Source of the DNA: an uncultured virus (IMG/VR IMGVR_UViG_3300028165_000034)
Taxonomy: Duplodnaviria > Heunggongvirae > Uroviricota > Caudoviricetes
IMG/VR virus record: IMGVR_UViG_3300028165_000034
Span: 1 to 64,000 of that record
Length of the DNA stretch: 64,000 nucleotides
Reading direction: 5' to 3' (one strand)
Of this stretch, positions 1 through 33,500 are shown piece after piece. Position 1 is the stretch's first letter. Every line of letters begins with the position of its first letter. A program made the position numbers and the translations under genes. Below the pieces are notes generated by a model. The model did no database searches and was not told the origin of the DNA. It saw only the letters and a list, made by a program, of their open reading frames with translations.

Positions 1-160
1 CCCGAAGTTGTCTGCTCCCAAATACGCAGGCACGATGTTCTCCACGTTGCAGCATCCACGCATGACGTGGACGCGCAAGGCTATCTGGACTTCTGTGACT
101 ACGTCCTGCGACAACATCCGGACGTCCTGATATTCGACCCATTCAACAAGGACCGCACGT

Positions 161-454
161 ATGACGAACTTGTTTCCTTCCTCCGAGAGAGCAGCGGAGG
201 TGTTCTCGAAACTGACCACGCTGGCTGACGATATGGGTACAGTGATTGGTGAGTTCGACCAGTCAGCAACTACGTTCAAGCGCAAGGCTCCGCACGACAA
301 CGTGCGCATCCAAGTGACAGATACCGTGCTGGTGTTCTTCGCACGTGGACCGTACAAGGAACCACTGCGCGAGTTCTTCGAGAACCCTGTACATAGCAAT
401 GATCCAGTCAGACTGCGCAGTGCCATACGCGCAATGGCAATACGGGAGCCCTAG
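161..454 (+). CDS. hypothetical protein
   Basis: 97-aa ORF with AAGGA upstream, followed by a terminator hairpin. Confidence 0.6.
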   Translation: MTNLFPSSERAAEVFSKLTTLADDMGTVIGEFDQSATTFKRKAPHDNVRIQVTDTVLVFFARGPYKEPLREFFENPVHSNDPVRLRSAIRAMAIREP

Positions 455-467
455 TGGTTCCCGTTTT
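442..467 (+). terminator. rho-independent terminator
   Basis: ACGGGAGCC-ctagt-GGTTCCCGT followed by T run. Confidence 0.7.
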
Positions 468-512
468 CATTTCCCTTGGTAATTTTTCCAGCATTGACTG
501 GGAGGTTACCGT

Positions 513-1016
513 ATGCAAGGTCTGTTTGGAAACAACGCACCGATGAAGAAACGCAGACAGAAGCGTTCCGAGAAGTACAAGCAGTACCACTATGAGTTCC
601 ACGGTCGGCAACTGCTGGTTCAAGGCTACGAGCGACAAGCGCTGGAGTACCTTGTCGAGAAAGGCGGATTCGACCCGGCCGACATTCGTACCGAGTGCGA
701 AATGGGTAACGCCCTGAACATTCGCTACAAGTACGGCAAGCGCTGGCGTACCTACATGCCTGATATCTTCATTCGCAACCACAACATCATCGTGGAAGTG
801 AAGTCGAAGGCAACGATGGGCCTGATCAACAACAAGAAGCGCGGCTGGAGCATGAACAAGGCTAAGGCCAAGGCATGCCAAGAGCGCGGCTTCAAGTTCT
901 GCGTGCTGCTCATGACGGGCTCTGGTAAGCGCATCCCGTTACCGAAGCGCTGGATGTTCATGCAGAAGGATGAGTGCCTGCGCATCATGCGTGAGGAACT
1001 CGGAGTGGTGATCTAA
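513..1016 (+). CDS. PD-(D/E)xK endonuclease (TnsA N-terminal / head-completion nuclease-like)
   Basis: YMPDIFI...IIVEVKS motif and KAKACQERGFKF helix; GGGAGG RBS. Confidence 0.65.
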   Translation: MQGLFGNNAPMKKRRQKRSEKYKQYHYEFHGRQLLVQGYERQALEYLVEKGGFDPADIRTECEMGNALNIRYKYGKRWRTYMPDIFIRNHNIIVEVKSKATMGLINNKKRGWSMNKAKAKACQERGFKFCVLLMTGSGKRIPLPKRWMFMQKDECLRIMREELGVVI

Positions 1017-1024
1017 ACTGTAAA
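1016..1024 (+). promoter_or_regulatory. candidate phage promoter motif AACTGTAAA
   Basis: Identical 9-mer at 3176 and 30481, each at a gene or operon boundary. Confidence 0.5.
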
Positions 1025-1050
1025 CTCCAGACAAACCACTGGAGAATGCT

Positions 1051-1284
1051 ATGGCACATTCAGCACAAAACGACCGTAAAACGTTCGCCCTCATCCTTCT
1101 GGCTGTTGCGGGCGTGGTAGTATTCATCATGTTGATGATCTACGGGTTCACTGCATGGAGTCGTTGGATGGCAGCGACTTCCGTGCAAAAGCAAGTTTAC
1201 TCGCCGCGGCCCGGCATCGAGTGTTTCATCGCAACTGGCACGGACGGTGTCGCGACCGACTGCTACCCAATTCCCAAGAACTAA
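1051..1284 (+). CDS. small membrane protein
   Basis: One hydrophobic segment FALILLAVAGVVVFIMLMIYGF; GGAG RBS. Confidence 0.65.
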   Translation: MAHSAQNDRKTFALILLAVAGVVVFIMLMIYGFTAWSRWMAATSVQKQVYSPRPGIECFIATGTDGVATDCYPIPKN

Positions 1285-1299
1285 CAGGCTATTAAGCAA

Positions 1300-2106
1300 A
1301 TGGCAGAATTGACCATCAAGGACCTCAAAGAGGCCAAGTATAACCCGCGTGTCATCAGTGAAAAGCGACTGGACAACCTGCACCTGTCCATGACTACCTA
1401 CGGTGACCTGTCCGGCGTCGTCTTCAACAAGAAGACCCAGAACCTGATTTCCGGTCACCAGCGCTTGAAGCGTCTGCGCGGTAAGGACGTCAAGACCAAG
1501 ATCGTCACAAAGCCTGTGAAGGACGCCTTCGGTACCGTTGCAGAAGGTCACATCGTTGCGAAGACTGCGAGCGGCGAAATCCGTATCCCACTACGCATCG
1601 TGGACTGGAGCGACAAGAAATCCGAGATGGCGGCCAACATCGCAGCGAACGCGCACGGTGGCGACTTCGACCGTACCAAGCTGGGCGTTATGCTGGAGAA
1701 GCTCGACGCCGGCAAGTCGTTCGACGTGAACGTTCTGGGTATCGACCCACTGAGCCTGCGTGGCTTGATGCCAAAGATGCCAACGCTCGACTCCAAAGGT
1801 CGCGAAATCGACAACGATGGCGAAGGCAAGGAGTCGTTCCAAGAGTTCGGCGAGGACAGCTTCGAGTTCGAGCATTGCTGCCCGAAGTGCAAATTCCAGT
1901 TCAACACCAGTGCCAAGTCGCAGCCTGCGGCCAAGGCTGAGCCGAAAGCTCCGAAGCTCAAGCTGAAAGAGAAAGACGGCAAGAAGGAAAAGTCGAAAGA
2001 CAAAGAGAAGGTCAAGAGTAAGGACAAGGGTGACAAGCCCAAGAAATCCAAGCTCGCGGCTCCGAAGAAAACAGAGCTGAAAATGCCAGCGAAGAAAAAG
2101 AAGTAA
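1300..2106 (+). CDS. ParB/Srx-like N-terminal domain protein with CxxC motif and Lys-rich tail
   Basis: YNPRVI...LISGHQRL ParB signature; CCPKC; basic C-terminus. Confidence 0.75.
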   Translation: MAELTIKDLKEAKYNPRVISEKRLDNLHLSMTTYGDLSGVVFNKKTQNLISGHQRLKRLRGKDVKTKIVTKPVKDAFGTVAEGHIVAKTASGEIRIPLRIVDWSDKKSEMAANIAANAHGGDFDRTKLGVMLEKLDAGKSFDVNVLGIDPLSLRGLMPKMPTLDSKGREIDNDGEGKESFQEFGEDSFEFEHCCPKCKFQFNTSAKSQPAAKAEPKAPKLKLKEKDGKKEKSKDKEKVKSKDKGDKPKKSKLAAPKKTELKMPAKKKK

Positions 2107-2116
2107 GGACGCAGCC

Positions 2117-3130
2117 ATGGCCAATGAGAAACGCATTCCCAAGATCCCTTCGATGAAGAAGATCAACGCGCTGCCCAAGCACTTCAAAGGCATCAGTTCT
2201 TTCAGTGGCTGTGGCGGCTCGTCTACTGGCGTGAAGATGGCGGGCATCCAAGTGCTCGCGGCTACCGAGTTCATCAAGCCGGCCATCGAAACCTACCAGA
2301 AGAACCACAAAGGCACCATGGTCATCGGCGAAGACATTCGCAAGGTTGACTGGGCAGCCATTCGCAAAGAGCTTGGCCTGAAACGTGGCCAGCTCGACTT
2401 CTCGGAAGGTAGCCCACCGTGCAAGTCATTCTCCACGTCTGGTACTGGCAGTGATGACTGGGGCAAGGAGAAGCTGTACAGCGAGAACGTCTACCAGCGC
2501 ACAGACGACCTCTTCTACGAGGAAATGCGCAAGCTGGAAGCCTTCATGCCGAAGGTATTTGTTTGCGAGAATGTCAAAGGCATGGTCGAGGGTGACGCGA
2601 AAGGCTACTTCGTCGAAATTCTCCGTGACTTGAAGGCGATCGGTTACAGCGTGCGTGCGCAAGTGCTCAACGCTGCATACCTTGGTGTGGCGCAAGCCCG
2701 TGAGCGTGTGATCTTCGTCGGCGTGCGTGACGATCTGGTGAAGAAAGGTTTCGACCCTGTATTCCCAACGCCGCACAAGTATGCCATCAACGTGAATGAC
2801 GTTCTACCTCACGTGGCGTACCTGAAGTCGAAGCACAAGGGTGACCTGAAGTACGTGCCTGCGTCGATCCCGTCACCTACAATCGTGGCTTCGGATGGCA
2901 CCAACAGCGAGACTGCTGGATTCTCCTCAGGTGGATTCATCGAGACGCTGAGCGGTGAGCGCCGTAAGTACACCATCGACGAGTTGAAGACCATCTTCAC
3001 CTTCCCCGAAGACTTCATCTTCACTGGTACCTACAAGCAGCAGTTTGAGCGCATCGGCCGCTCGGTACCACCGCTCATGATGTACCACGTTTGCCGCGAG
3101 CTTCGCCGCAATATCCTCGAAAAGCTGTAA
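2117..3130 (+). CDS. C5-cytosine DNA methyltransferase family; candidate carboxymethyltransferase
   Basis: Motif I FSGCGG, IV PPCKSFS, VI ENVKG, VIII QARERVIFVG, X IGRSVPP (Arg where Asn is usual). Confidence 0.92.
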   Translation: MANEKRIPKIPSMKKINALPKHFKGISSFSGCGGSSTGVKMAGIQVLAATEFIKPAIETYQKNHKGTMVIGEDIRKVDWAAIRKELGLKRGQLDFSEGSPPCKSFSTSGTGSDDWGKEKLYSENVYQRTDDLFYEEMRKLEAFMPKVFVCENVKGMVEGDAKGYFVEILRDLKAIGYSVRAQVLNAAYLGVAQARERVIFVGVRDDLVKKGFDPVFPTPHKYAINVNDVLPHVAYLKSKHKGDLKYVPASIPSPTIVASDGTNSETAGFSSGGFIETLSGERRKYTIDELKTIFTFPEDFIFTGTYKQQFERIGRSVPPLMMYHVCRELRRNILEKL

Positions 3131-3136
3131 GCCTCG

Positions 3137-3168
3137 CACAAAGGGAGCCATCGCGCTCCCTTTTTGTG
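3137..3168 (+). terminator. rho-independent terminator
   Basis: AAAGGGAGC-catcgc-GCTCCCTTTTT. Confidence 0.75.
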
Positions 3169-3175
3169 GCCTTGA

Positions 3176-3184
3176 AACTGTAAA
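3176..3184 (+). promoter_or_regulatory. candidate phage promoter motif AACTGTAAA
   Basis: Directly after a terminator and upstream of the cmoA-like gene. Confidence 0.5.
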
Positions 3185-3227
3185 TGACCAGTAAGCCCAC
3201 ATGGGCATCAAACATGGAGTTACGGAC

Positions 3228-4013
3228 ATGCAACCAATCGAAACCCTGCGCGACGATCACGTACCCGGCCAGAAGTGGGAGTTCAACGAGGACGTCGCCA
3301 AGAAGTTTGACAACATGCTGGAGCGCAGCATCCCCGGCTATGGTTCGATGCGTGAATTGGTGTGGCGACTGGGCAAGAACTTCGTCAAGACACCGTGCAA
3401 CGTCATTGACCTCGGTGCAAGCCGCGGTGAAGCGAGTGCCAAGTTCATTGGTGCGTTCCCAGAAGCCCAGTTCTATCTGAGCGAAATCTCGGACCCGATG
3501 CTTGAAGAAATGCGTGGGCGCTTCGCCGACCAGTTCAACGTACACCCGTGCAGCTACGACCTGCGCAAGAAGGCCAAAGAGATTGCCGACGCCATTCGCT
3601 GGCCGAGTGCGCACATGAGTGGCAGTGTGGAATTCCACAAAGTGCAGACGCTGCCGACTAACCTCGTGCTGTCGATCCTTACCATGATCTTCGTGCCGAT
3701 CAATTTCCGACCGTCCATCCTAAAGGGCGTGTACGATGGTCTGGAATCTGGCGGTGCCTTCTTCATGGTAGAGAAGGTGCTGGGCAACACGGCAGTGATG
3801 CAAGAACTGCTGGTCGATGCCTACCATGAGTACAAGCACGACAACGGCTATAGCTGGGAAGACATTGAGCGCAAGCGTGCAGCCCTCGAAGGTGTTCAGG
3901 TCCCAGTGACCCATGAGAACAATATCGAAATGCTGCGCACCGCTGGCTTCCGTAGCGTCGAGACGTTCTTCCGCAACCTCAACTTCGTGGGCTACATCGC
4001 CATCAAGGACTAA
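3228..4013 (+). CDS. cmoA: CmoA-like carboxy-S-adenosyl-L-methionine synthase (alternative start 3201)
   Basis: WEFNEDVAKKFDNMLERSIPGY, DLGASRG SAM-binding motif, and ERKRAALEGV matching the CmoA KRxxLE segment; GGAG upstream of 3228. Confidence 0.8.
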   Translation: MQPIETLRDDHVPGQKWEFNEDVAKKFDNMLERSIPGYGSMRELVWRLGKNFVKTPCNVIDLGASRGEASAKFIGAFPEAQFYLSEISDPMLEEMRGRFADQFNVHPCSYDLRKKAKEIADAIRWPSAHMSGSVEFHKVQTLPTNLVLSILTMIFVPINFRPSILKGVYDGLESGGAFFMVEKVLGNTAVMQELLVDAYHEYKHDNGYSWEDIERKRAALEGVQVPVTHENNIEMLRTAGFRSVETFFRNLNFVGYIAIKD

Positions 4014-4016
4014 GCA

Positions 4017-4469
4017 ATGCGCGAACTCCAATTGCTCCGCAAGCGTGTGAAAACGCTGTGGAAAATGGAAGAGGGCCTGAGCCCGAATGAGCGTCGCCTT
4101 CATCAGTGGCAAGTGTCTGCAACCCAAGCAGGCATCATGTACACCGTTGGTAAGGGCGATGCCAACACGTTCTTCTATGCCGTCAACGGCAACGATATGA
4201 AGTTCGTGATGCCAGACGTGATGATGAAGTTGCTGGACGATTGGACCAACAGCGATTACGTGGCGTACACGATCACCAAGAAGAAGGATATCAGCGGCAT
4301 GCCTTTGCGCACGTCGCCAGCCGCCTTCCTTAAAGTGACGAAGGACAAGTACCTGGGTTACTACATCGTGGGCATCAAGTCCAACGGTGACATTGTTCGC
4401 CTGCACAAACTTGAAGGCGGACTCCAGGGTAATCACTGGGTAAAATTCAAAGGCAAGAAGAAACGCTAG
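4017..4469 (+). CDS. hypothetical protein within the modification cluster
   Basis: 150-aa ORF tightly coupled to both neighbours. Confidence 0.7.
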   Translation: MRELQLLRKRVKTLWKMEEGLSPNERRLHQWQVSATQAGIMYTVGKGDANTFFYAVNGNDMKFVMPDVMMKLLDDWTNSDYVAYTITKKKDISGMPLRTSPAAFLKVTKDKYLGYYIVGIKSNGDIVRLHKLEGGLQGNHWVKFKGKKKR

Positions 4470-4477
4470 GAGCGATC

Positions 4478-5335
4478 ATGGATCAGAAGACGCGAGCCAG
4501 AAAGCTCCGTAAAGCCCTTGTTGAACGGGCAGCGTCGTACGGCGTGAAGAAGGTAGCCGTGCCAATGAGCAGCGGTGTGGACAGTCACTGCGCCCTGTTC
4601 GCTTGCCTTGAGGCTGGGTTGAAGCCGCATGTGTACAGCTTCCACCTCGAAGGTGTCGAGAGCCGCGACGTGCGCATCGCCCAACTGACTGCGAAAGAGT
4701 TCGGACTGCCGTTTACCAAAGTCACATTGCCCACTGGTCAGAAGCGTTTGATGAAGGACGTCGTGAAGCTCGCCGAGTTTGGCTGCCGATCGAAGACCGA
4801 CTTCGAGTGCTTCTGGCCAATGTACCATCTGCTGCCCAAGATCAAGGAAGACGTGTTCTTCACTGGTCACGGTGCAGACAGCCTGTACTGCCTGAGTCGC
4901 AAAGCCTGCCAGCACTACGCTGGGCGCGAAGACGAATTCCGTGCGCTCGCATTCTCGTCCAACAAAGCCTTCCAGAAGGGCTTGATCGAGAAGTGGTGTG
5001 CAGAGAACGGCGGTGACCTTGCGTACTGCCCGATCTTCTTCACACCGAAGATTCTGAAAATCTTCCAGGGTGCGACCCCTGCTGACCTGAACAAGCCTAT
5101 TCAGAAGGCAGTCAGCCGCATGGCATTCGAGGAGTATTTCGAGCGCGTGCGTGTGTACGTTCACCAACCGTTTCAGTTGGGTGACACTGGCATCAAGGCT
5201 GGCTTCGAGGAGCATCTGCTCGAAAGCCCACTGAACACCAAAGGCTACAAGTCTGTAGTCGGCATCTACAACGAGCTGGTGCGTACTCACGGTCCAGCAG
5301 TAAGCGAACCAGATACAGGGTGGGACGACGAATGA
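4478..5335 (+). CDS. asparagine synthetase-like ATP pyrophosphatase (amide ligase) lacking a glutaminase domain
   Basis: PP-loop MSSGVDS near the N-terminus, FTGHGADSLY (AsnB GxGADE-like), QKAVSRMAF; only 285 aa. Confidence 0.8.
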   Translation: MDQKTRARKLRKALVERAASYGVKKVAVPMSSGVDSHCALFACLEAGLKPHVYSFHLEGVESRDVRIAQLTAKEFGLPFTKVTLPTGQKRLMKDVVKLAEFGCRSKTDFECFWPMYHLLPKIKEDVFFTGHGADSLYCLSRKACQHYAGREDEFRALAFSSNKAFQKGLIEKWCAENGGDLAYCPIFFTPKILKIFQGATPADLNKPIQKAVSRMAFEEYFERVRVYVHQPFQLGDTGIKAGFEEHLLESPLNTKGYKSVVGIYNELVRTHGPAVSEPDTGWDDE

Positions 5336-5967
5336 GCACCGTGATGACCAAGTACACTCGGATCAACCTGAACACGGCCGAGCTGTACTTCAAACAAGCC
5401 TGCGCCGAGTTGTACCCAACGTTCGATCATCCGAACAAGGCACAGTTGCGCGCAGCCTACGACAAGATCATGGACGGCGGTGTTGATCGTCCAGAATTTG
5501 AGCGTCCTGCTGAGTGTCCAGCACTGACGCCTCTCCAGATCGAGTTCGCAGAAGGTGTGGCCAAGCTGGTTGAAGAATACTTCGACTCGGCATCGCCAAG
5601 CGCGACCGCCGTGTACACCTTCCTCGCGTTCGAAGGCCTCGACCCGAAAGAAGGCTACCACATCAGCGAAGACAAGCATGTGATCGACCTGTTCGCTCGC
5701 TTCGTTGACCTAGGCAAAGGTGCCTACGACTACATCGCTCGCCGTGCAATCCAGCAGACCCATGTCGATCCCCGTTTCATCGTGATCCGTTTGGCTGACG
5801 ACTGCAAGCGCTACGGCGTGCGTACTCTGCGTGCTCCAACGTCGGAAGGTGAAGTGATGTTCAGCCTCGATCCGCTTGAGCACCACAAGAAGTTCGACAA
5901 TCAAATCTTCATCCCAGCGATCGGCGGTTACTACGGCATCGTTGGCAAGACTCGTTCCGAGGGCTGA
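5332..5967 (+). CDS. hypothetical protein
   Basis: ATGA overlap with upstream stop. Confidence 0.7.
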   Translation: MSTVMTKYTRINLNTAELYFKQACAELYPTFDHPNKAQLRAAYDKIMDGGVDRPEFERPAECPALTPLQIEFAEGVAKLVEEYFDSASPSATAVYTFLAFEGLDPKEGYHISEDKHVIDLFARFVDLGKGAYDYIARRAIQQTHVDPRFIVIRLADDCKRYGVRTLRAPTSEGEVMFSLDPLEHHKKFDNQIFIPAIGGYYGIVGKTRSEG

Positions 5968-5969
5968 CC

Positions 5970-6572
5970 ATGTCTCAGTACAAGCTGAAAGATTTCCCAA
6001 TGGAGGAATACGACTATCCAACTGCGCAGATCATGCGCGATGGAGGTATCGCCTTCGACACCCGCTACGACTACGTTGCTAGTTCGTTTCTCGATGGTCT
6101 GGTAAACTACGGGAAGAACCACGTCGCGTTCCTGCTGGCGCGCTACGGTCTTGAAAAGCCAGAGGGTGAGCGCGTTGACAATGACGAAGACAACGATGCC
6201 AACTGGATCGCACCTACTGTCGAGAACTACCAAGCGTTTGCAGATGCTGCAACCGCGAAACACCACTTCAAGGCCAAAGGCGACGACTGGTTGGTACTGT
6301 ACGAAACCGACAACAGCTACTTTCTGATGTGGTACGATCAGGACAGTAGCGATTGCAGTGTTGAGCGTTACAGCCGCCGCTCGCTTGCAGAGCCGCAGTA
6401 CGGCATCAAGACACTCGACGAGTTTGTCGAAGCCCGCATCGCCATGTTCCGTGAAGCGCACTTCCGTGACGATCCACGTGGCGGTTACTATCCACGCGGG
6501 CAAACCCCGCAAGAGCGTGTGGACATTCTCGTTCGCGCTGCCAACAACCCACGTGGCTGGATCAGCTCGTAA
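5970..6572 (+). CDS. hypothetical protein
   Basis: 200-aa ORF in operon, typical codon usage. Confidence 0.7.
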   Translation: MSQYKLKDFPMEEYDYPTAQIMRDGGIAFDTRYDYVASSFLDGLVNYGKNHVAFLLARYGLEKPEGERVDNDEDNDANWIAPTVENYQAFADAATAKHHFKAKGDDWLVLYETDNSYFLMWYDQDSSDCSVERYSRRSLAEPQYGIKTLDEFVEARIAMFREAHFRDDPRGGYYPRGQTPQERVDILVRAANNPRGWISS

Positions 6573-6581
6573 GGAATTCCC

Positions 6582-7607
6582 ATGGCCAAGAAAGACAAAG
6601 AGAAGAAAAAGGAGAAGAAGTCCAAGTCTCCTGCGATGATGGCGATCCAGAAGGACAGCTACATCATCGTGCGTGTTGGCACCAAGCATCATCTGTGCCT
6701 CGCGATCAACCCTGAGCGCAATCGCGCAGTGATCGACCGCACTCTGGCTGACGAAGAACACCAGACCATTGAGTACGATGACCAAACACTGGTTGCCAAC
6801 CTCGGTCTGAACCCGAAGCCAGGTGGTAATGCGTTCGGCGTGAAGATCAACCCATACATCACCAGCGTCGATTCCAAGTACGGACCGATGCACTTCTTCC
6901 GTGTGCTGGAAGACCTGGAGAAGAAAGCGCTCAAGTCTGCGCTGCGTCGTACCTACGATGCGATGCTGGAGAACAACCTGAACATCTTCCCGCTTGGCAG
7001 CATCAAGCTGTTCCCGAAGCGTGGAAAGTACGCAGGCTGCTACCACATCAAGCGCTCCATGAGCGAGTTCACTGACGGCATCGACCTGTACCCAGACACG
7101 TTCACCGACCGTGCGTACAACGAGTATGTCCTGTACCACGAGTACGCGCACGCAGTCTGGTTCCGCATGGTGCCTGGTGCGTACAAGGCGCGCTGGATCA
7201 AGCTCTACCACAAGCGTCTGGAGCTGAACAGCATCCTGAAAGATCGGTTGGAGTCGATGCTTGGTGAACTGATCGAGTTCAGCGGCACGTTCAAGGAATT
7301 CTATAAAGAGCTTGAAGATCAAGACTCTCTGGTGTTCCGCGAAGTGCTCAGCCACTACAAGCGCTACCACAAGCTCGACGGCCGCAGCCTCGAAATCCTC
7401 TATCTTGAGGACAGCGAGAAGTTCGCCTCGATGTGGCCGAAGCGTACAACGATCGTGGAGTCGCGTCCTGATCTGTCCGAATACTCCATGGTGAGCCCGG
7501 ACGAGTTCTTTGCAGAGGCATTCGCATTCCACATGACTGGGAAGACGATGCCTAAAGACATTACCAAGGCTATGGAGAAAACCCTGAAGGCGCTCCAGAG
7601 CATCTAA
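6582..7607 (+). CDS. zincin-like metallopeptidase
   Basis: HEYAH (HExxH) with downstream SEYSMVSPDEFFAEAF. Confidence 0.65.
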   Translation: MAKKDKEKKKEKKSKSPAMMAIQKDSYIIVRVGTKHHLCLAINPERNRAVIDRTLADEEHQTIEYDDQTLVANLGLNPKPGGNAFGVKINPYITSVDSKYGPMHFFRVLEDLEKKALKSALRRTYDAMLENNLNIFPLGSIKLFPKRGKYAGCYHIKRSMSEFTDGIDLYPDTFTDRAYNEYVLYHEYAHAVWFRMVPGAYKARWIKLYHKRLELNSILKDRLESMLGELIEFSGTFKEFYKELEDQDSLVFREVLSHYKRYHKLDGRSLEILYLEDSEKFASMWPKRTTIVESRPDLSEYSMVSPDEFFAEAFAFHMTGKTMPKDITKAMEKTLKALQSI

Positions 7608-7619
7608 AGGAGTTCACTG

Positions 7620-8186
7620 ATGAACGACCTCGCTACCTTGAAGTCCCTTACGAACATTATGCCGATCGCTACTCTCGGCAATCGCCCGCGTGACATTGCG
7701 TTCAACCGCTTCAAGTTTGAACGCCTCAGCGCGCATGGCTCTGTGGAAAACGGCATCGTCCTGACAATCAACGACGACGCCTTCGAAGATGTTGAGGAGT
7801 GGATGGACTACATCCGCTCGCCCATTGGAACTCAGACGGTGCATCGCACTGCTACAGCTGAGGACCTGCAGAGCCTATCGTTGGCTATGCCTGCAAATAT
7901 GCTGCGCAAACGCAACGTCACCAACTACGTGACTATGCTGACCGACGACAAAGTGGTGTTTCGTTTCGTGACGGCTCGGTGGCGAGGCGTGGACTATCCG
8001 ATCGAAGAACTCAATCGGTACTTCACCCAGCTGCGACTCGCGTACTACCTGAGCGACGAAGTGGGCGTTATTGATCTGCGAATTGCGCTGGGTAGTGTAA
8101 ACCATCATTACACCAGCATACATCAACTCGAGGACATCCTGTACACGATGGCCTACCATTTCTTCCGCGAAGATACGGAGCTCTAA
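7620..8186 (+). CDS. hypothetical protein
   Basis: AAGGAG RBS, 188 aa. Confidence 0.7.
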   Translation: MNDLATLKSLTNIMPIATLGNRPRDIAFNRFKFERLSAHGSVENGIVLTINDDAFEDVEEWMDYIRSPIGTQTVHRTATAEDLQSLSLAMPANMLRKRNVTNYVTMLTDDKVVFRFVTARWRGVDYPIEELNRYFTQLRLAYYLSDEVGVIDLRIALGSVNHHYTSIHQLEDILYTMAYHFFREDTEL

Positions 8187-8190
8187 TAGC

Positions 8191-9327
8191 ATGGCGAAGA
8201 AGCAGAAGGCTGCGATTGAAGAGACGGCATCAGCCACTCAGTCTCTCGCCGTTACTCACCGACCGCGCACACTCAAAGACGTTGTTGGTCAAGACGACAG
8301 CGTTTCCATCATCAAGGGTATGATTAAGCGCAACCGTTTCCCGGGCGCGATCCTGATTAGCGGTGTCACAGGCACTGGCAAGACGACACTGGCGCGTATC
8401 CTTGCGACGTACATGAACGCCGACGATCCGAAGAACGTCCGTGAGTCCATGGCGTACAAGCTGGGCGAGAAGCATCCAGACGTCACCATCGTCAACGCAG
8501 GTACTCACGGTAAGGTCGAGGACATTCGCTCTCTCGTCCGTGGTGCCAACGCTGCGCCGCACACCAACTACCGCGTGTTCATCATCGACGAGGCTCACAA
8601 GCTCACCGGTGCGTCCGCAGAAGCGCTGCTGGTTCCTATCGAAGAGCCGAGCATCCACACCATCTGGATTCTCTGCACGACGAACCCGGAGAAACTGGTC
8701 GACACCATCGCAGGTCGTTGCACCAAGATCAACCTGAACCGCATCGAACCAGAGCACATCGTCTCTCGCCTGCAGTACATCGTCGAGCAAGAGAAGATGG
8801 ACTTCGTTAAAGGCAAGGAAGGTAAGAAGGCGCTGGAGCTGATCGCTGCCATGTGCGACGGCAGTATGCGCAACGCCATTGCCCACCTTGAAGCTGTGAT
8901 GTTCGCAGGCTTCGGCGGCAAGAAGCTCGACGCAGAAGGTGCACTCAAGGCATACGTCGAATCGTCGGCAGCAGACCTCGACAAGGCCGCAGCGTCTGTC
9001 GTTGCGGCCACGATGAACCTCGACCTGCCTGGGTTGATCGCCATCATCCGTAAAGCGCAGAACCCACGCGGCATCGTGTACAAGACACGCGCCCTGCTCG
9101 ACTACCTGATTGGCGCAAAGACCAAGACGGCGAAGTTCCTGCCGTACTCCGGGCGCATCTTCGAGCAGCTTGCAAAGAAAATGGATATCAAGTACGGGCT
9201 CAAGGGCCTGGTGATGCTCCAGCACACCATCGTTGAACTGGAGCTGCAACTCAACTCGACCAGCATCGACGAATCGGTGCTCCTGCAAACCTATCTCGGC
9301 CGTTTCGTGATCGAGAACAAAGGCTAA
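8191..9327 (+). CDS. dnaX: clamp loader AAA+ subunit, DNA polymerase III gamma/tau-like
   Basis: HRPRTLKDVVGQ, Walker A GVTGTGKTT, IIDEAHKL, IEEP, TIAGRC, GSMRNA. Confidence 0.9.
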   Translation: MAKKQKAAIEETASATQSLAVTHRPRTLKDVVGQDDSVSIIKGMIKRNRFPGAILISGVTGTGKTTLARILATYMNADDPKNVRESMAYKLGEKHPDVTIVNAGTHGKVEDIRSLVRGANAAPHTNYRVFIIDEAHKLTGASAEALLVPIEEPSIHTIWILCTTNPEKLVDTIAGRCTKINLNRIEPEHIVSRLQYIVEQEKMDFVKGKEGKKALELIAAMCDGSMRNAIAHLEAVMFAGFGGKKLDAEGALKAYVESSAADLDKAAASVVAATMNLDLPGLIAIIRKAQNPRGIVYKTRALLDYLIGAKTKTAKFLPYSGRIFEQLAKKMDIKYGLKGLVMLQHTIVELELQLNSTSIDESVLLQTYLGRFVIENKG

Positions 9328-9333
9328 TCGAAC

Positions 9334-11760
9334 ATGCTCAAGCTGACTGACGTTGAACTCACCGACGTCGTCAACTTCAAAAAAGTGAAACTGGACATTA
9401 CCCGACATCCTTTTACGGTCATCACTGGCCATAATAAGGATAGTCGCATTTCCACAGAGACCAGCAACGGTGCGGGCAAGTCCCTGCTGTTGTCCTCTGT
9501 GCCAAACCTTCGTTATGAAGCCGCTCCCCTCGCCACCACCAAAAGCAAGAAAGATATGCTTGAGACGGCGAAGTCGAGCATCCGAATTGGGCTTATCGGA
9601 AATGACGGCAAGCCCTATTCGATCACTCAAACAAATTCCAAGTTCATCATTGAATGTGACGGCACCGACAAAGAAGTCAGAACCATCCCTCTCCAGAAGA
9701 AGGAGATTGAGCGGATTTTCCCGCTGACTGAGGATGAGTTCTATTCGTATGTGTACCTGCAGTCGCAACGCCCGCTGTCGTTCCAAAGCGACAAGCCAGC
9801 GGCGCGTCTCCAGTACATCACCTCGCTGTTCCAACTGGACGTGTACGATCGGTTGAAGCGGCACTTCACCCAGAAGCTGGGCGAAATCAAGAACAAGCAG
9901 GTCGAGTTTGACGTGGTGAATGCGCAGTTGGTGAAAATCAACGGCATCCTCGAACGTCTCGACTGGGACAAGGAGAAGGCGGAGAAGCTGGAAGAAGCAC
10001 GTGGTGTCATCAAGGCGCTGGGTGACGAATCCAAGAAGCTGCACTCCAAGATCGAAAAGCTCAAGGGTGCCATCGCCGCAAGCGAGCGAATCTCCAAGCT
10101 CAAGAAGCAACGGAAGAAGCTCAAGCCCAAGCTGTCACGCAAAGCTGCACAGGCCGAGTTGCAACTGCACGAAGACCTGGCCGAGTACGAGTCCGACCTG
10201 AAGTCGTTCCGCGCTCAGGTTAAGCAATACACCAACCAGCTTACCGAAATCGGTGAAGTGAGCGCGCCTGCTGTGCTAAAGGCGCACATGGCCAAGATCG
10301 AGAAGGAGCTGGAGAAGGAAGAAGAGTGGTTGACCGAAGCGCATAGCAAGCGCCAGCAGGTCAAGCAGATCGCCAAAGACTTGGAAGAGGCGGAAGAAGC
10401 CTACAAGGCCGTTGGTGGTAAGCTCAAAGAGGTGAACGTTGCTGTCGCATTCGGCACTGCCGAGTTCGAGCGCGTGCTCCTGCAATACCAACCTGTGATG
10501 CAACTGGCTTCGATTGTCGATGACTGTGCAGATGGTGAGTGTCCAACTTGCCAGCAGACGGTTAACGTCAAGAAGTTCAGGAAGCAGATTGATCAGGCGA
10601 AAGGCAAGATCAAGGAAGCCAAGCGGTCCATCAAGATCGCTGACGCCGCCGTGGTGCTCGCCAAACTGCGTACCAAAAGCCGCAAGCTGGAGTTCAACGA
10701 GGAAGAGTTCGTTGAGCGCCGTGAGAAGTATCGCAAGCGCGATGCCAAGCTTGACGAGCTCCGTGAGAAGCTGAACGATGCCCGCCAAGCGCAGAAGTTG
10801 AAAGATCGACTGGGTGAACTGAAACAGCCGAAGGAGCCTAAGGCGATTCCGAACTACACTCGGAAGGACCTACGCGCCATGCTGGAAGATCACTCGGAGA
10901 TTGCACGCATCGACTCCGTGCTTGAAAGTTTATTGGAAGATTACGGAACTATTGATGTAGATTCGTTGTCTAATAAGCTAGCAGAGGCAAAGCAGCGGTA
11001 TGCAAAAGTCGAGCGCAAGTACAGCCGTGCGCAGGACATTGTAAGCTCCTACGGTTCCAAAGCCAGTGAGTTCAAGGTGCTCAAGCGCGAGCGCAACGAC
11101 GCCCTTGTGAAGCTGGAAGACCTGAAGCCCATCATTGCTCAACGCGACCTCATTAAGTCGCTGGAGAAGGCGTACTCCGCCAAGGGCTTGAAAGTAAACG
11201 CCGCGAACGAGATTCTCTTCCAGATCGAGGAGCAACTCAATCGCAACTCCCACCTGATCTTTGCCGAGCCGTTCAAGTTCAACGTCTTCGCAAAGGAGAA
11301 TGGTGTGCATTGCATCGTTGACCGTGGCAACGGGAAGAAGCCGACTGACGTCCGCTTGCTCTCTGGTGCCGAGAGTGACTGTTTCAGGTTGCTCTGGTTC
11401 TTTGTAATGCTCATTATGGTGGAAGATGATCGTCGTACAAACTTCGCCGTACTGGATGAACCAGATAGCCACATGGACCCGACCACTCGGTCGTTGTTCG
11501 TTGAGCGCTACCTGCCAGCACTGCGTTCGCTGGTGCCGCATGTGTTCCTGATTACTCCTCTGGATAAACACCTGTACACCGAATGCGCGTACCTGACGGT
11601 TGTCAAACACAAAGGCGTTTCACAGGTCATGGAGAACTACAATGAAGATGGTGAGCTTCGGGTGCCACGCGCCAGACGAAGTGCTGGTGAGGCTGAATCG
11701 AGAAAAGGGCGTAAAAAGAAGCCACGTTCTGATGATCGAGCCCGAAGGAAAGCTGCCTAA
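9334..11760 (+). CDS. sbcC: SbcC/Rad50-like ATPase (recombination nuclease subunit)
   Basis: NGAGKS Walker A, coiled coil with CPTC zinc hook, LSGAE signature, LDEPDSHMD. Confidence 0.88.
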   Translation: MLKLTDVELTDVVNFKKVKLDITRHPFTVITGHNKDSRISTETSNGAGKSLLLSSVPNLRYEAAPLATTKSKKDMLETAKSSIRIGLIGNDGKPYSITQTNSKFIIECDGTDKEVRTIPLQKKEIERIFPLTEDEFYSYVYLQSQRPLSFQSDKPAARLQYITSLFQLDVYDRLKRHFTQKLGEIKNKQVEFDVVNAQLVKINGILERLDWDKEKAEKLEEARGVIKALGDESKKLHSKIEKLKGAIAASERISKLKKQRKKLKPKLSRKAAQAELQLHEDLAEYESDLKSFRAQVKQYTNQLTEIGEVSAPAVLKAHMAKIEKELEKEEEWLTEAHSKRQQVKQIAKDLEEAEEAYKAVGGKLKEVNVAVAFGTAEFERVLLQYQPVMQLASIVDDCADGECPTCQQTVNVKKFRKQIDQAKGKIKEAKRSIKIADAAVVLAKLRTKSRKLEFNEEEFVERREKYRKRDAKLDELREKLNDARQAQKLKDRLGELKQPKEPKAIPNYTRKDLRAMLEDHSEIARIDSVLESLLEDYGTIDVDSLSNKLAEAKQRYAKVERKYSRAQDIVSSYGSKASEFKVLKRERNDALVKLEDLKPIIAQRDLIKSLEKAYSAKGLKVNAANEILFQIEEQLNRNSHLIFAEPFKFNVFAKENGVHCIVDRGNGKKPTDVRLLSGAESDCFRLLWFFVMLIMVEDDRRTNFAVLDEPDSHMDPTTRSLFVERYLPALRSLVPHVFLITPLDKHLYTECAYLTVVKHKGVSQVMENYNEDGELRVPRARRSAGEAESRKGRKKKPRSDDRARRKAA

Positions 11761-14334: not shown

Positions 14335-14368
14335 TTTTCTCTGTGCGCTCGTCTCTTGCTGTAGATAA

Positions 14369-14377
14369 TGCTAATTT
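14369..14377 (+). promoter_or_regulatory. candidate late promoter motif TGCTAATTT
   Basis: Recurs at 15559, 39971 and 50962 ahead of putative virion genes. Confidence 0.5.
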
Positions 14378-14472
14378 TTTCTACATCGAGAGACTTGCAT
14401 ACCTTGGCGCTAAGGTTGTGTCCTGCGTCCTCGATGCAAAATACAACCCTTACCCAGATGGAGATTGCCAAA

Positions 14473-15477
14473 ATGGCAAAGACCCGTGCCGTAAAAGACC
14501 CGAAGGCTGGTAAGTTCGCCAAGCCGAAGATGGTCAAAGTGGACAACAGTCCAGAAGCGAAAGCCAAGGCCAAGAAAGCCAAGCAAGCTCGCCAATCGAC
14601 CAAAGCCGCCACCAACGCCAAAGCTCGTACCGAGCGCAAAACCCGCACCCCGGCCGAGCGCCTGGAAGCCGGTGAAAAACGCGCCATCCGCCGCGCTCAG
14701 AAAGAAGGCCGCGACCCGCGCGCTGCCGCCAAAGAGTACCGCGCCTGGTTCAAAAAGCAGCAGTCTCACGGCGCTGCCAAGTCGAAGTCGAAAGAAGCCG
14801 TTGGCAAGGCTCGCGAAAAGGCCAAGTCCGCTCGCACCGCTCTGTCCGCCGCTGGCAAGCAACTGTCCGCGAAGTACAAGCAAGCTCGCGCTGCTCTGAA
14901 AGGCCTGCCGGCTGACAAGCGCAAAGCGAAAGCTGCTGCCCTGCGCACCAAGTTCGCCGCGGCCAAAGCCAAGCTGGCTACCAAGCGTACCAAGCTGTCG
15001 GCTTCGCACAAGAAGACCATCGAGAGCATCAAGTCGAAGCTGGCGAAAAAGCACCCAGGCGCCAACCCGCACCGTAAGGTGAAGGCTGCTCCTGCTGCTG
15101 CCGCTGCTCCAGCGAAAAAGACTCGCGCCACCAAGGCTCCGGCCAAGGCAGCGACCACCAAGGCAGTCAAGGCTCCGGCCAAGAAAGCCGTAAAAGAAGC
15201 CGTTAAGTCGGCTCCGGTGAAGAAGGCAATCAAAGCCGAAGTCAAGAAAGCAGTTAAACCTGCTGCCAAGACCGAAGCCAAGAAAGCTGTGAAGGCTCCG
15301 GCCAAGAAGGCTACCAAAGCCGCGGCTACCAAAGCCGTTAAAGCTCCTGCCAAGAAAGCGACCAAAGCGGCCGCCACCAAGGCAGTAAAAGCTCCGGCCA
15401 AGAAAGCCGTCAAGACCGCAGCAAAAGCACCAGCCGCGAAGACCTCGACTCGCGCGCGTAAAGTCGCCCGCGGTTAA
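14473..15477 (+). CDS. histone H1-like (AlgP/Hc2-like) Lys/Ala-rich DNA-binding protein
   Basis: Extreme K/A content with repeats of KAPAKKA(T/V)KAAATKAV; GGAG RBS. Confidence 0.8.
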   Translation: MAKTRAVKDPKAGKFAKPKMVKVDNSPEAKAKAKKAKQARQSTKAATNAKARTERKTRTPAERLEAGEKRAIRRAQKEGRDPRAAAKEYRAWFKKQQSHGAAKSKSKEAVGKAREKAKSARTALSAAGKQLSAKYKQARAALKGLPADKRKAKAAALRTKFAAAKAKLATKRTKLSASHKKTIESIKSKLAKKHPGANPHRKVKAAPAAAAAPAKKTRATKAPAKAATTKAVKAPAKKAVKEAVKSAPVKKAIKAEVKKAVKPAAKTEAKKAVKAPAKKATKAAATKAVKAPAKKATKAAATKAVKAPAKKAVKTAAKAPAAKTSTRARKVARG

Positions 15478-29941: not shown

Positions 29942-30445
29942 GTGAAACACCCTGCTGAGTTGACCTATGCAGCATTCAGACTCCGGGGTGCCACGCGACG
30001 TTACCTGTTCTGCCGTACCGACGAGAAGCCTCACTTCGGTGACAACACGTTCGACTTCCTCGGTTACTTTGGTTTCGGCAGTGGTGAGTTTGGAGGTGAG
30101 CACCCACAGCAGTTCGACGGACTGCGCGTCAAGGTGCAAGTCTTCACGGACCCTGAATTCGCTCTGGCCTATATCTCGACGCTGATGACTCAGCCGACGG
30201 ATGGGTTCAGTGGCTTCTTCACCCACGACGGCTACACGTTCCATGTCGTGACCGAGGACGCAGAGGGTGTTCCACTGACTCACCTGAAAGCGCTCAACTG
30301 GCACTACTACACCAACGTTGGCGGCTCCAAGAAACTTGCGCATGACCACATCGTGACCTTGAATCGTCGCCATGTGCTGTTCGCAACCTACGAGGAGCAG
30401 AGTGCGTTACTCACGCGCTACGCCAAACTCGCTGGAGTTTTCTAG
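29942..30445 (+). CDS. hypothetical protein
   Basis: GTG start abutting upstream stop. Confidence 0.65.
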   Translation: MKHPAELTYAAFRLRGATRRYLFCRTDEKPHFGDNTFDFLGYFGFGSGEFGGEHPQQFDGLRVKVQVFTDPEFALAYISTLMTQPTDGFSGFFTHDGYTFHVVTEDAEGVPLTHLKALNWHYYTNVGGSKKLAHDHIVTLNRRHVLFATYEEQSALLTRYAKLAGVF

Positions 30446-30449
30446 CACC

Positions 30450-30478
30450 AAGGCGGCCTTCGGGTCGCCTTTTTCTTT
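30450..30478 (+). terminator. rho-independent terminator
   Basis: AAGGCGGCC-TTCG-GGTCGCCTTTTT. Confidence 0.85.
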
Positions 30479-30480
30479 GG

Positions 30481-30489
30481 AACTGTAAA
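30481..30489 (+). promoter_or_regulatory. candidate phage promoter motif AACTGTAAA
   Basis: Between the terminator and the DNA polymerase start. Confidence 0.5.
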
Positions 30490-30516
30490 CACACCATAGT
30501 CTTTGACTAGAGGTCC

Positions 30517-33500
30517 GTGACAATGCCGAAGTGCGATCACGTCGAGTTGGACTATACATACTCCAAGAAGTTCCGTAGAGTCGAGAACAACTATGGGTAT
30601 GTCCGGCTCGCCAAATCTTCCAAGAAGAACGCGAAGAGGAAAATCCTGTTCGTGCTCGATTATGTGCCGACCGAAGACCTACGCTCTGGTCGGATGCTGT
30701 CTGGTGCCACTGGTCAGTTGTTTGACAACCTGATCGCCGTGGTCGAACGCCACTATCACTCTGAGGTCAAACTCTCCGAGTGCAACTGGCTGGCTGTGAG
30801 TTACAACGCTTTCAAGACTGCTGGCATGCCTGAGCAATTCCGCACAGAAGCCAAGCAGGAGTTTACCGAGCGCATCAACCACATCATCACCGAGTACAAG
30901 CCTGACGTTGTGATGACGTTTGGTATGGACCCGCTGCGTGCGCTCAATGGGGAATACATCAGCAAGTTCCGCGACAAGAAAGGCATTCACTGGGAGCACT
31001 TCTACGGTGTGCCAATCAAGACGAAGGCCAAGTCTGGTGGCAAGACGCACAAGTACAAGCACGTCAGTTCGTTCAGCCTGAACACGTTGGTGGGTGCCAC
31101 AGGTAAGGGTGAGCCAATGTACCTAGCCGGGTACGTGGCACGCAACATTATGAACGCGCTGTACGGCAAGCTTCGATACGAAATGCCGAAGCTGGAGTTC
31201 AAGACTCGACTGGTTGACTCCATCGAGAAGTTTGACAAGATGATGGAGACTCTGTACGACGCGCCTGTTGTCGCAATCGACACAGAGACCAAGAACCTGA
31301 ACCGCATCGTGAACCGAATGCTGACTATCCAGTTCGCAGTCGATGAACATGCGGCGTACATCGTTCCTATCGGGCACAAGGACAGTCCTTGGCTGCCTGA
31401 GGAATTGAAGTACATCAAGAAGAAGCTCAAGGCCTACTTCGAGCATCGCAACAAGAACAAGGAACACATCTACGCCAACGCCGTGTTCGACCTGAATCGG
31501 ATTCGCGTTGACCTGGGTGTGCGGCATTTCAAGAATGCCGTGTGGGACGTGTTCGCAGGTGAGTTTGGTCTGGACGAGAACATGAAGATCATGAACTCGT
31601 ACGGCAACACCTACTACACCTTGTTGAACATCACCATGCAGTACGGGTGCCATGCGTACTACGAGTCGGACTTCGGTAAGGACAAGCGTGCCACGATTGA
31701 AACCGTGGACTTGGACAAGCCGCTCCTGAACTACTGTGCGCTGGACGTTATCACCCTGATCCACATTCGTCGCCTGCAGATACAGCGTGCGAAGGACTTT
31801 GGCTATCGCAAGTTCAAGTCCATCGTGCGCGAGCAGATCAGCGATATGCTCCACGTGTTCTCCTGTCTGGAGACCAACGGATGTAAGACGGATATCAACT
31901 GGTTGTTCTACCTCAAGTCGAACGACAGTCCGATCATCCAGCATCGCGAGGCAGTCATCAAGGCGTTGGAAGAAACGGCAGGTGCCGAGAAGACCAACAA
32001 CCGACTCCAGAAGAATACCGGCGCGCCAGCGAAAGGTATCTGGGGCAAGACCAAGATGAAGATTTTCAACGTGGCGAAGAAAGCGCACTTGAACATGATG
32101 ATGTTCGACGTGCTCAAGTTGAAACCCACGTCTGTCGGCAAGAACGGTCAAGGCGCCGTCGACAAGGACTTCCAGAAGAAGTATGCGGACGTCCCAGAGG
32201 TCGCGCTGTATAACGAGCTCCAGAAGATCAAGAAAATCTTCAACAGCTACGTCAAGGCGTTCGTGAAGCAATGGGGTTCCGACCCTGATATGCGGTTCGA
32301 CTCCTGCATCCGACCGTTCTTCAACTTCCGTGACGTTGTGACGGGCCGTACTTCTGCGAAGAAGCCGTCGCTCCACCAGTTGCCAAGTCGAAACGACATT
32401 ACCGAGTTCATCAAGAAGATGTTCCCGGGACGTGCCGACCTTGGTAAGTTCATCAAGCGATTGTTCATTGCGGACAAGGGCCGTCTGATCCTAAAGATCG
32501 ACTATGCGGCTCACGAAGTTCGTGGTTGGTCGATCATCACTGGTGACAAGGAAGTAGCTGACCTGTTCTGGCACGGCTTGCGTATGCGTAACCAGTACAA
32601 GCTGTTCCCGACGCCTGAGCTTGCGCACAAGATCGCGATGGAAGGTGACGTCCACCGTATCAACGCCGCGTACTTCTTCGGCATGGATATCAACGACGTT
32701 GACAAGCCGAAGCGTAACAGCGTTAAGCAGGTAGTCTTCGGTCTGATCTACCAGCAGGGTGTTGAAGGTTCTGCGAAGTCTACTGGCCAGACGGTCGAAG
32801 CGATTAAGGCACTGATCAAGGCGTTCTTCAAACGCTTCCCAGTTGGTGCTGGTTGGTTCGACAAGATCAAGAAGAAGGCTGCCGACCAGTTGTTCGTCGA
32901 GTCTCCTCTGGGTCGCCGTCGTAACCTGTGGGCGTTCCTGATTCCGAAAGATGCCAAGTCGTTTGATGGTGTGTACGCGGCTACTGGTCGTCGTGCAGTG
33001 AACTCGCCGATTCAGGGCATGGGTTCTGACTTCCTCGTGTCTGGTGCTCGCCTGATTGAGCAACTGCGCTGGAAGCACTACAAAGAGACCAAGCACTACC
33101 CAGACTTCTACATGACCAACTCGGTACACGACTCCCTTGAGTTCTCGGTTGCTTATGAAGACGTGTGGAACGCGATCCGTATTATCGAACACGGTCTTAC
33201 CTACGGTGTGATGGACGTCATGGAGAAACGCCATGGCATGAAGTTCCTCGTGCCGCTGGAGATTGACTTCGAGATTGGTGCGAACATCCGCGACTGCGCT
33301 GGTTGGGACTACAGCCTCAAGTCTGCCGATCCTGATTTCAAGGACAACGTGGCAGGCAAGAAGCCAGTGGACAAGAAAGGCGAGAAGAAGGAAGACGATG
33401 GAAGTATCGAGAACCTGATCTACCAAGCGCTCAAGCAGCAGCGCGACGAGTTCAAGTACGATGTGGACGTCGATGCCGTATTCAAGCAAATCATGTCCAA

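Follow-up and report, generated by a model that had tools for sequence, protein, structure and literature searches.

Gene organization of the locus

The DNA analysed here, called the window, is a stretch of 64,000 nucleotides at the start of a virus record of 119 kb from an uncultured member of the Caudoviricetes (IMG/VR IMGVR_UViG_3300028165_000034); the record is 45% complete. The phage, a giant phage from soil, is close to the Pseudomonas jumbo phage PaBG. Its genes are named here after the system of the Synechococcus phage S-B43 reported by Yang et al. (Nat Commun 2025; PMC12783734), in which CmoA makes carboxy-SAM, CmoX makes 5cxmC at GC in DNA, and SpCmoY, an asparagine-synthetase homologue, joins glycine to 5cxmC with ATP. 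The following features lie at the locus.

1300..2106, + strand: ParB-like protein (phrog_620, E 5.7e-33), directly upstream of cmoX
2117..3130, + strand: predicted CmoX-type DNA cytosine C5-carboxymethyltransferase, 337 aa, with SPPC at residues 99-102 and R315
3201..4013, + strand: predicted CmoA-type carboxy-SAM synthase, 270 aa (TIGR00740; 30% identity to SpCmoA)
4017..4469, + strand: 150-aa companion protein (phrog_23597), between cmoA and cmoY
4478..5335, + strand: predicted ATP-dependent amide ligase of the CmoY type, 285 aa, consisting of an AsnB-type synthetase domain alone
4568..4585, + strand: PP-loop SSGVDS, the ATP/pyrophosphate-binding motif, residues 31-36 of the ligase

The ligase ORF begins with ATG, has AGGAG just 5' of it, and starts 8 bases past the stop codon of the upstream ORF. 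The predicted CmoX was 36% identical to SpCmoX over 356 columns, and its top PDB match was 8YF3 (E 1e-57). R315 aligned with R350 of SpCmoX, the type of Arg reported as the defining residue of CmoX (PMC12783734), whereas the target-recognition region did not align with that of S-B43 CmoX. For the predicted CmoA, the best profile was TIGR00740 (E 1e-37), at a score below the curated cut-off, as was also the case for SpCmoA. Its R226 aligned with the functional residue R199 of E. coli CmoA (4GEK alignment, counted by hand). A parB-like gene adjoins cmoX in PaBG and in the phages AD1, Y3 and SNUABM_5 too, and many cmoX contigs are reported to carry ParBc genes (PMC12783734).

The 150-aa gene was present in all five of the cmo-carrying jumbo phages, and was not found in the fetched DNA of three cmo-less relatives or in that of S-B43. 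Residues W31, GK45-46, NT50-51 and W141 were invariant in 11/11 of the proteins, and no Pfam or NCBIfam match above noise was obtained. The structural model of this protein had a pLDDT of 90.9. Its best PDB match, Pur-alpha (Z 6.0, rmsd 3.2, 75 aligned residues), lay within background; the BFVD search gave the PaBG orthologue only, and the best Atlas match (0.87) was unnamed.

The order of the genes is that of PaBG gp176-gp180, which are annotated as ParB-like, DNA cytosine methylase, 'tRNA cmo5U34 methyltransferase', hypothetical and 'asparagine synthase'. The identity to PaBG was 82% for cmoY (gp180), 89% for cmoX, 71% for cmoA and 53% for the 150-aa gene, and the window differs from PaBG in having an extra 200-aa ORF (5970-6572) before the peptidase gene. 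The PaBG cluster was annotated as metabolic, and no passage on DNA modification was found in the accessible part of the PaBG paper (PMC7412058), where gene 180 is listed as a metabolic asparagine synthase.

Downstream of cmoY, the ORFs at 5332-5967 (+) and 5970-6572 (+) encode 211 and 200 aa, respectively, neither with a Pfam or PHROG match; homologues of the former occur in PaBG and at one other viral locus (L058). Elsewhere in the window, a Lys/Ala-rich repetitive ORF of 369 aa (14368-15477, +) looks histone H1-like and may be DNA-binding. RNA-library contigs cover the whole stretch, and because they do so as pieces of 28-69 kb, they give no sign of transcription.

The ligase is a stand-alone synthetase domain

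The initial annotation had placed the motif SSGVDS about 30 aa from the start of the protein and had read from this that the N-terminal Ntn glutaminase domain is absent. Both points held. The PP-loop occupies residues 31-36, and S31 and G33 were found in 46/46 distinct homologues, D35 and S36 in 45/46. The Pfam family Asn_synthase (PF00733) matched residues 24-161 above the cut-off (E 8.4e-7), and no GATase family was matched in the same Pfam search. In the AlphaFold model of the ligase (pLDDT 93.7, built on 87 sequences), the top Foldseek matches were asparagine synthetases and beta-lactam synthetases. Residues 1-285 of the model aligned only to residues 225-539 of human asparagine synthetase (ASNS), with Z 22.7 and rmsd 3.1 over 271 aligned residues, and residue 1 fell at residue 206 of E. 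coli AsnB (aligned region 206-516, Z 19.4). Since the model aligns end to end with the synthetase domain of ASNS, the entire protein is this domain.

Compared with AsnB, human ASNS, beta-lactam synthetase and the carbapenam synthetase CarA, the synthetase fold and the PP-loop were alike (Z 18-23). In contrast, the sequence identity was 12-18%, the window ligase has no N-terminal Ntn domain, and the acidic aspartate pocket of ASNS (E364, E368, D400) is not kept.

The short ligase is not the product of an assembly break: three other assemblies, which may be the window's own source, cover positions 1-9400 as one contig with no letter or gap differing. The short, synthetase-only form is the norm for this ligase family. 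In a search over the length range of 156-499 aa, 90/90 matches, the window's own protein included, were 165-313 aa long, and stop-to-stop frames reached at most 323 aa in 88 homologous ligase ORFs. Fused-glutaminase forms were also sought among the relatives and were set aside. Out of 8000 scored candidates, a search for long forms (549-2000 aa) gave only three weak AsnB-like matches (E 6e-5 to 3e-4), and is a weak test of fused forms, because lengths of 500-548 aa lay outside it.

Relationship to SpCmoY and linkage with cmoA and cmoX

The ligase showed 33% identity to SpCmoY (A0A514ABJ0) over 243 aa (E 7e-35). Conservation of 90% or more was found at 24 columns in the alignment of 46 distinct homologues. 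The window ligase and SpCmoY have the same residue at 23 of these; at the remaining one, column 186, a Pro occurs one position before. Like SpCmoY, the window ligase is a stand-alone AsnB-type synthetase domain (271-285 aa for the two), encoded in a cluster with cmoA and an Arg-bearing cmoX. It differs in this respect from the A0A7T0Q3R0 cluster of ligases, for which a fused glutamine amidase domain is reported (PMC12783734). The two systems are also distinguished by the gene order, which is parB-cmoX-cmoA-150aa-cmoY in the window and cmoA-cmoY-cmoX in S-B43, and by the C-terminal motif of the ligase, which is KSVVGIYN in the window protein versus the RxRxxD type in SpCmoY.

The neighbourhood of the ligase gene was examined at the best 80 of 492 confirmed viral loci with a ligase homologue, six of the 80 being the window phage or PaBG. 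A cmoA-like gene was found at 66 of these loci and a cmoX-like gene at 72; 62 carried both and 76 at least one. Counted by the 40 distinct ligases in the same 80 loci, the numbers were 34 with cmoA, 35 with cmoX and 37 with at least one. The G-R-x-V-P-P pattern was matched at 53 of the 72 cmoX loci; among the other 19, some of which are cut off, the aligned Arg was present in 12. Neither cmoA nor cmoX was found in the fetched flanks at 4/80 loci (L031, L058, L059 and L094); more distant partners are possible there, as seen in AD1, whose cmoX is located about 17 kb from cmoA/cmoY. In five related complete phages, the three cmo genes occur as a set: AD1 has all of them, and JA11, HRDY3, Aura and NCTB have none. 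In Table 5 of PMC6143709, this trio is listed among the genes that AD1 and Y3 share and JA11 lacks.

From the homology, the cmoA and cmoX neighbours with their key residues, the co-occurrence of the genes and the missing acidic pocket of ASNS, the window protein is very likely to be a ligase that forms an amide on 5cxmC in DNA, by analogy with SpCmoY. The initial annotation had proposed that the enzyme puts an external amine on a macromolecular carboxylate such as that of 5cxmC-DNA rather than making asparagine. This proposal is supported, by analogy, by the homology to SpCmoY, and is further backed by the cmoA/cmoX context, the finding that related phages have either all three genes or none, and the pocket loss. 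The idea of amide ligation on 5cxmC is not new, because the chemistry of SpCmoY is already published; the window ligase very probably adds a new member to the described CmoA/CmoX/CmoY system. In the literature from 2025 on, no report on CmoX, CmoY or 5cxmC other than PMC12783734 was found by a search with subscription journals mostly outside its coverage.

Proposed pathway

Acyl-adenylate chemistry is established for the family of ASNS, beta-lactam synthetase and CarA. In the pathway that we propose, CmoA (3201-4013) would convert SAM and prephenate to carboxy-SAM, and CmoX (2117-3130) would use this to carboxymethylate DNA cytosines at C5. The CmoY-type ligase would then hold ATP at the PP-loop and adenylate the carboxylate of 5cxmC with release of PPi, and a free amine would attack the adenylate to give the amide and AMP. 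A glutaminase domain would be dispensable in this scheme, because the nucleophile is taken from solution. The ligase would thus be the last enzyme of a post-replicative hypermodification pathway of the phage DNA, the purpose of which would be to shield the DNA from restriction enzymes. The invariant residues K106, E110, R155, K210 and H229 may bind the base, the DNA or the carboxylate of the amine.

For the S-B43 system, SpCmoY is reported to give the glycine amide of 5cxmC in vivo and in vitro, 5gcxmdC is present in the virion DNA, and the adenylate step is the authors' proposal (PMC12783734). For the window copy, the analysis establishes the fold, homology, motifs, gene context and co-occurrence; we infer its activity, its amine and the protective role, product formation being known for the S-B43 homologues only.

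Which amine is used

Glycine, the substrate of SpCmoY, is slightly favoured as the amine of the window ligase. Another alpha-amino acid is a good deal less probable, and some other amine or ammonia is less probable again. The main variant of the proposed pathway is therefore a CmoY-like DNA amide ligase that attaches an amine other than glycine and so gives an undescribed base, a reading that we consider plausible but the less likely one.

The phylogeny and the probable pocket positions speak for this variant. SpCmoY fell in a clade of 11 rows (support 100/99) that does not contain the window ligase, which grouped with the ligases of PaBG and SNUABM_5 (support 96/93); the deep branches of the tree were weak. 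In a similarity network, SpCmoY and the window ligase were separate at scores of 50-70 and joined at 48, where the score approximates the threshold of PMC12783734 and the sample of 177 sequences is biased to the window ligase. Q166, which maps to the ASNS pocket residue D400, was found in 35/35 sequences on the window-ligase side versus G in 10/11 of the SpCmoY clade. G235-D236 was present in 35/35 of the former and absent in 11/11 of the latter; S259 (31/35) was replaced by R (11/11), and N265 (35/35) by R, S or K. Because the window ligase falls outside the SpCmoY clade and deviates from SpCmoY at Q166, GD235-236 and S259, which are probable pocket positions, its amine may not be glycine. 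The 2,251 such ligases reported in PMC12783734 fall into clusters; a glutaminase domain occurs in some of these, and pocket residues distinct from those of SpCmoY in others.

On the other hand, K106, R155, K210 and H229, the near-invariant charged or polar candidates for binding the carboxylate of an amino acid, are all common to SpCmoY, and several smaller clusters are reported to retain the glycine-carboxylate residues (PMC12783734). In addition, no amine-making gene was recognised beside the ligase gene or in 43 further window ORFs scanned, opposite-strand frames included.

An amide other than that of glycine would add a new base to those of natural DNA, whereas a 5gcxmC product would only widen the known range of the system. 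Yang et al. were able to obtain only S-B43 and expressed a wish for phages with divergent CmoY (review response, PMC12783734). PaBG is in culture on a laboratory strain, so the CmoA/CmoX/CmoY system can be tested there.

Less likely functions of the PP-loop protein

One alternative to the amide ligase is a PP-loop enzyme acting on tRNA, a nucleotide or a cofactor, like QueC, MnmA, LarE or NadE, with CmoA serving tRNA modification. The ligase did give weak matches of this kind (tRNA_Me_trans, E 0.05; a QueC-like PHROG, E 3.3e-6; QueC/NadE chains), most of them covering only 60-130 residues at the N-terminus. However, the structure scores fell from Z 17-23 for ASNS, beta-lactam and carbapenam synthetases to at most 11.6 for the other PP-loop folds of the QueC, MnmA, LarE and NadE type, and the linked gene encodes a C5-transferase of DNA that bears the Arg of CmoX. 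We therefore regard this function as highly improbable.

The PaBG homologue has been called an asparagine synthase, both in the GenBank annotation and in the metabolism listing of PMC7412058, and an auxiliary metabolic gene for an ammonia-dependent asparagine synthetase, using free NH3 or a glutaminase in trans, would agree with the ASNS/AsnB synthetase fold, its PP-loop and the retention of the Asp of ASNS D367 (D134 of the ligase, in 43/46 homologues). The active-site residues argue against it. In a profile alignment counted by hand, ASNS E364 is replaced by H131, E368 by S135, D400 by Q166 and R339 by E110, so that the GEGSDE motif of ASNS, the Glu of which is human E364, reads GHGADS in the window ligase. 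Glu was found at position 131 in 0/46 homologues and at position 135 in 0/46. E364, D367 and E368 are described as the acidic pocket of ASNS, and the human E364A and E364Q enzymes were reported to be inactive with aspartate, ATP and ammonium (PMC6748925). The ligase scored 30 against TIGR01536, for which the cut-off is 267. GATase_7 was detected in 0/6 records, namely the 45%-complete record of the window and five others including the complete PaBG and S-B43, with 14/14 controls detected. Taken together, asparagine synthesis is the least probable function considered here, and the amide-ligase assignment puts right the name 'asparagine synthase' used for this gene in PaBG-like jumbo phages. The 150-aa ORF was considered as a split or trans-acting glutaminase and was rejected, as it starts with MRE and has no family match, with the same absence of GATase_7 from the six records. 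Nothing on these enzymes was found in the accessible part of PMC7824862.

Probable sequence context of the mark

The observed/expected ratios of 6-bp palindromes were compared between the cmo-carrying genomes (the record of the window, PaBG, AD1, Y3 and SNUABM_5) and the cmo-less JA11, HRDY3 and Aura, a comparison in which the genomes are related, the hosts differ and the sites are not independent. AD1, Y3, SNUABM_5, JA11 and HRDY3 were counted on the first 200 kb. Sites were retained where every one of the eight genomes had an expected count of 8 or more, which left 41 that contain C. Of these, the 8 CC sites were higher in the carriers by a median of 0.51, whereas the 33 others were lower by 0.12. 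The p value of the CC shift was 2.2e-4, with seven dinucleotides tested, and that of GC was 0.93. In the pair AD1/JA11, which shares the same host, the shift was 0.69 at the 8 CC sites and 0.02 at 38 sites.

Of the 27 sites avoided by JA11, one was dropped for its low expectation; at the remainder, the record of the window had a median of 0.91 at 10 CC sites versus 0.49 at 16 others (p 0.0012). Release of the CC sites avoided by JA11 was seen in 5/5 carriers, although weakly in Y3 (p 0.023). Tests within a genome were significant only in the record of the window and PaBG, and not in AD1, Y3 or SNUABM_5. Against a general release, the CC site GGATCC is still avoided, at 0.25 in the record of the window and 0.00 in PaBG. 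The positive control, S-B43, gave a weak signal (GC 1.09 versus 0.87, p 0.016), and CA behaved similarly.

These sequence comparisons suggest that the CmoX of the PaBG-like lineage probably marks CC rather than GC. A CC-type target fits the target-recognition region of the window CmoX, which does not align with that of S-B43. The 150-aa companion possibly helps in marking in the CC context. The combination of both departures from S-B43 in the PaBG-like clade, an amide other than that of glycine together with a CmoX mark in the CC and not the GC context, is rather unlikely. The tolerance of CC palindromes by the carriers and their avoidance by the cmo-less relatives may be read as indirect evidence that the mark works against restriction. 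A CC-directed carboxymethyltransferase, if this target is true, would join SpCmoX (GC) and the engineered M.MpeI (CG) as labelling tools.

Depletion of the CC dinucleotide was tried as a sign of the target and discarded, as the cmo-less JA11 has the same value (0.77). Separately, CCGG was below expectation in cmo carriers (0.42-0.78) and not in non-carriers (1.04-1.35).

Variant cmo loci in other phages

Some related loci carry additional genes. A DUF1611/DgcN-like gene (NF041892, E 2e-82, under the cut-off) lies between cmoA and a divergent cmoY in Erwinia phage Alexandra (L003:4935-5990), in AD1 (L120:4016-5071) and at L033:6821-7927. It was found in 34 phage records, 32 of Erwinia and 2 of Dickeya phages, and the cmoY matches of 26-28% are equal to these records in number and make-up. 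This gene is a candidate for serving a different amine or a further step; it was not found in the 45%-complete record of the window. The gene after cmoY is Fe(II)-dioxygenase-like in Y3 (Y3_020, L005:7038-7676), with a weak NF003974 match, and in Sen-NF (L006:6829-7476). Its product might carry out a further tailoring; this gene, too, was not found in the incomplete record of the window.

The cmoX genes of the Erwinia/Dickeya jumbo phages (AD1, 29975-32065; Y3; SNUABM_5) contain an insert of about 350 aa at SPPC. This insert begins with Cys and ends with HN before the catalytic Cys, and is thus intein-like by motif.
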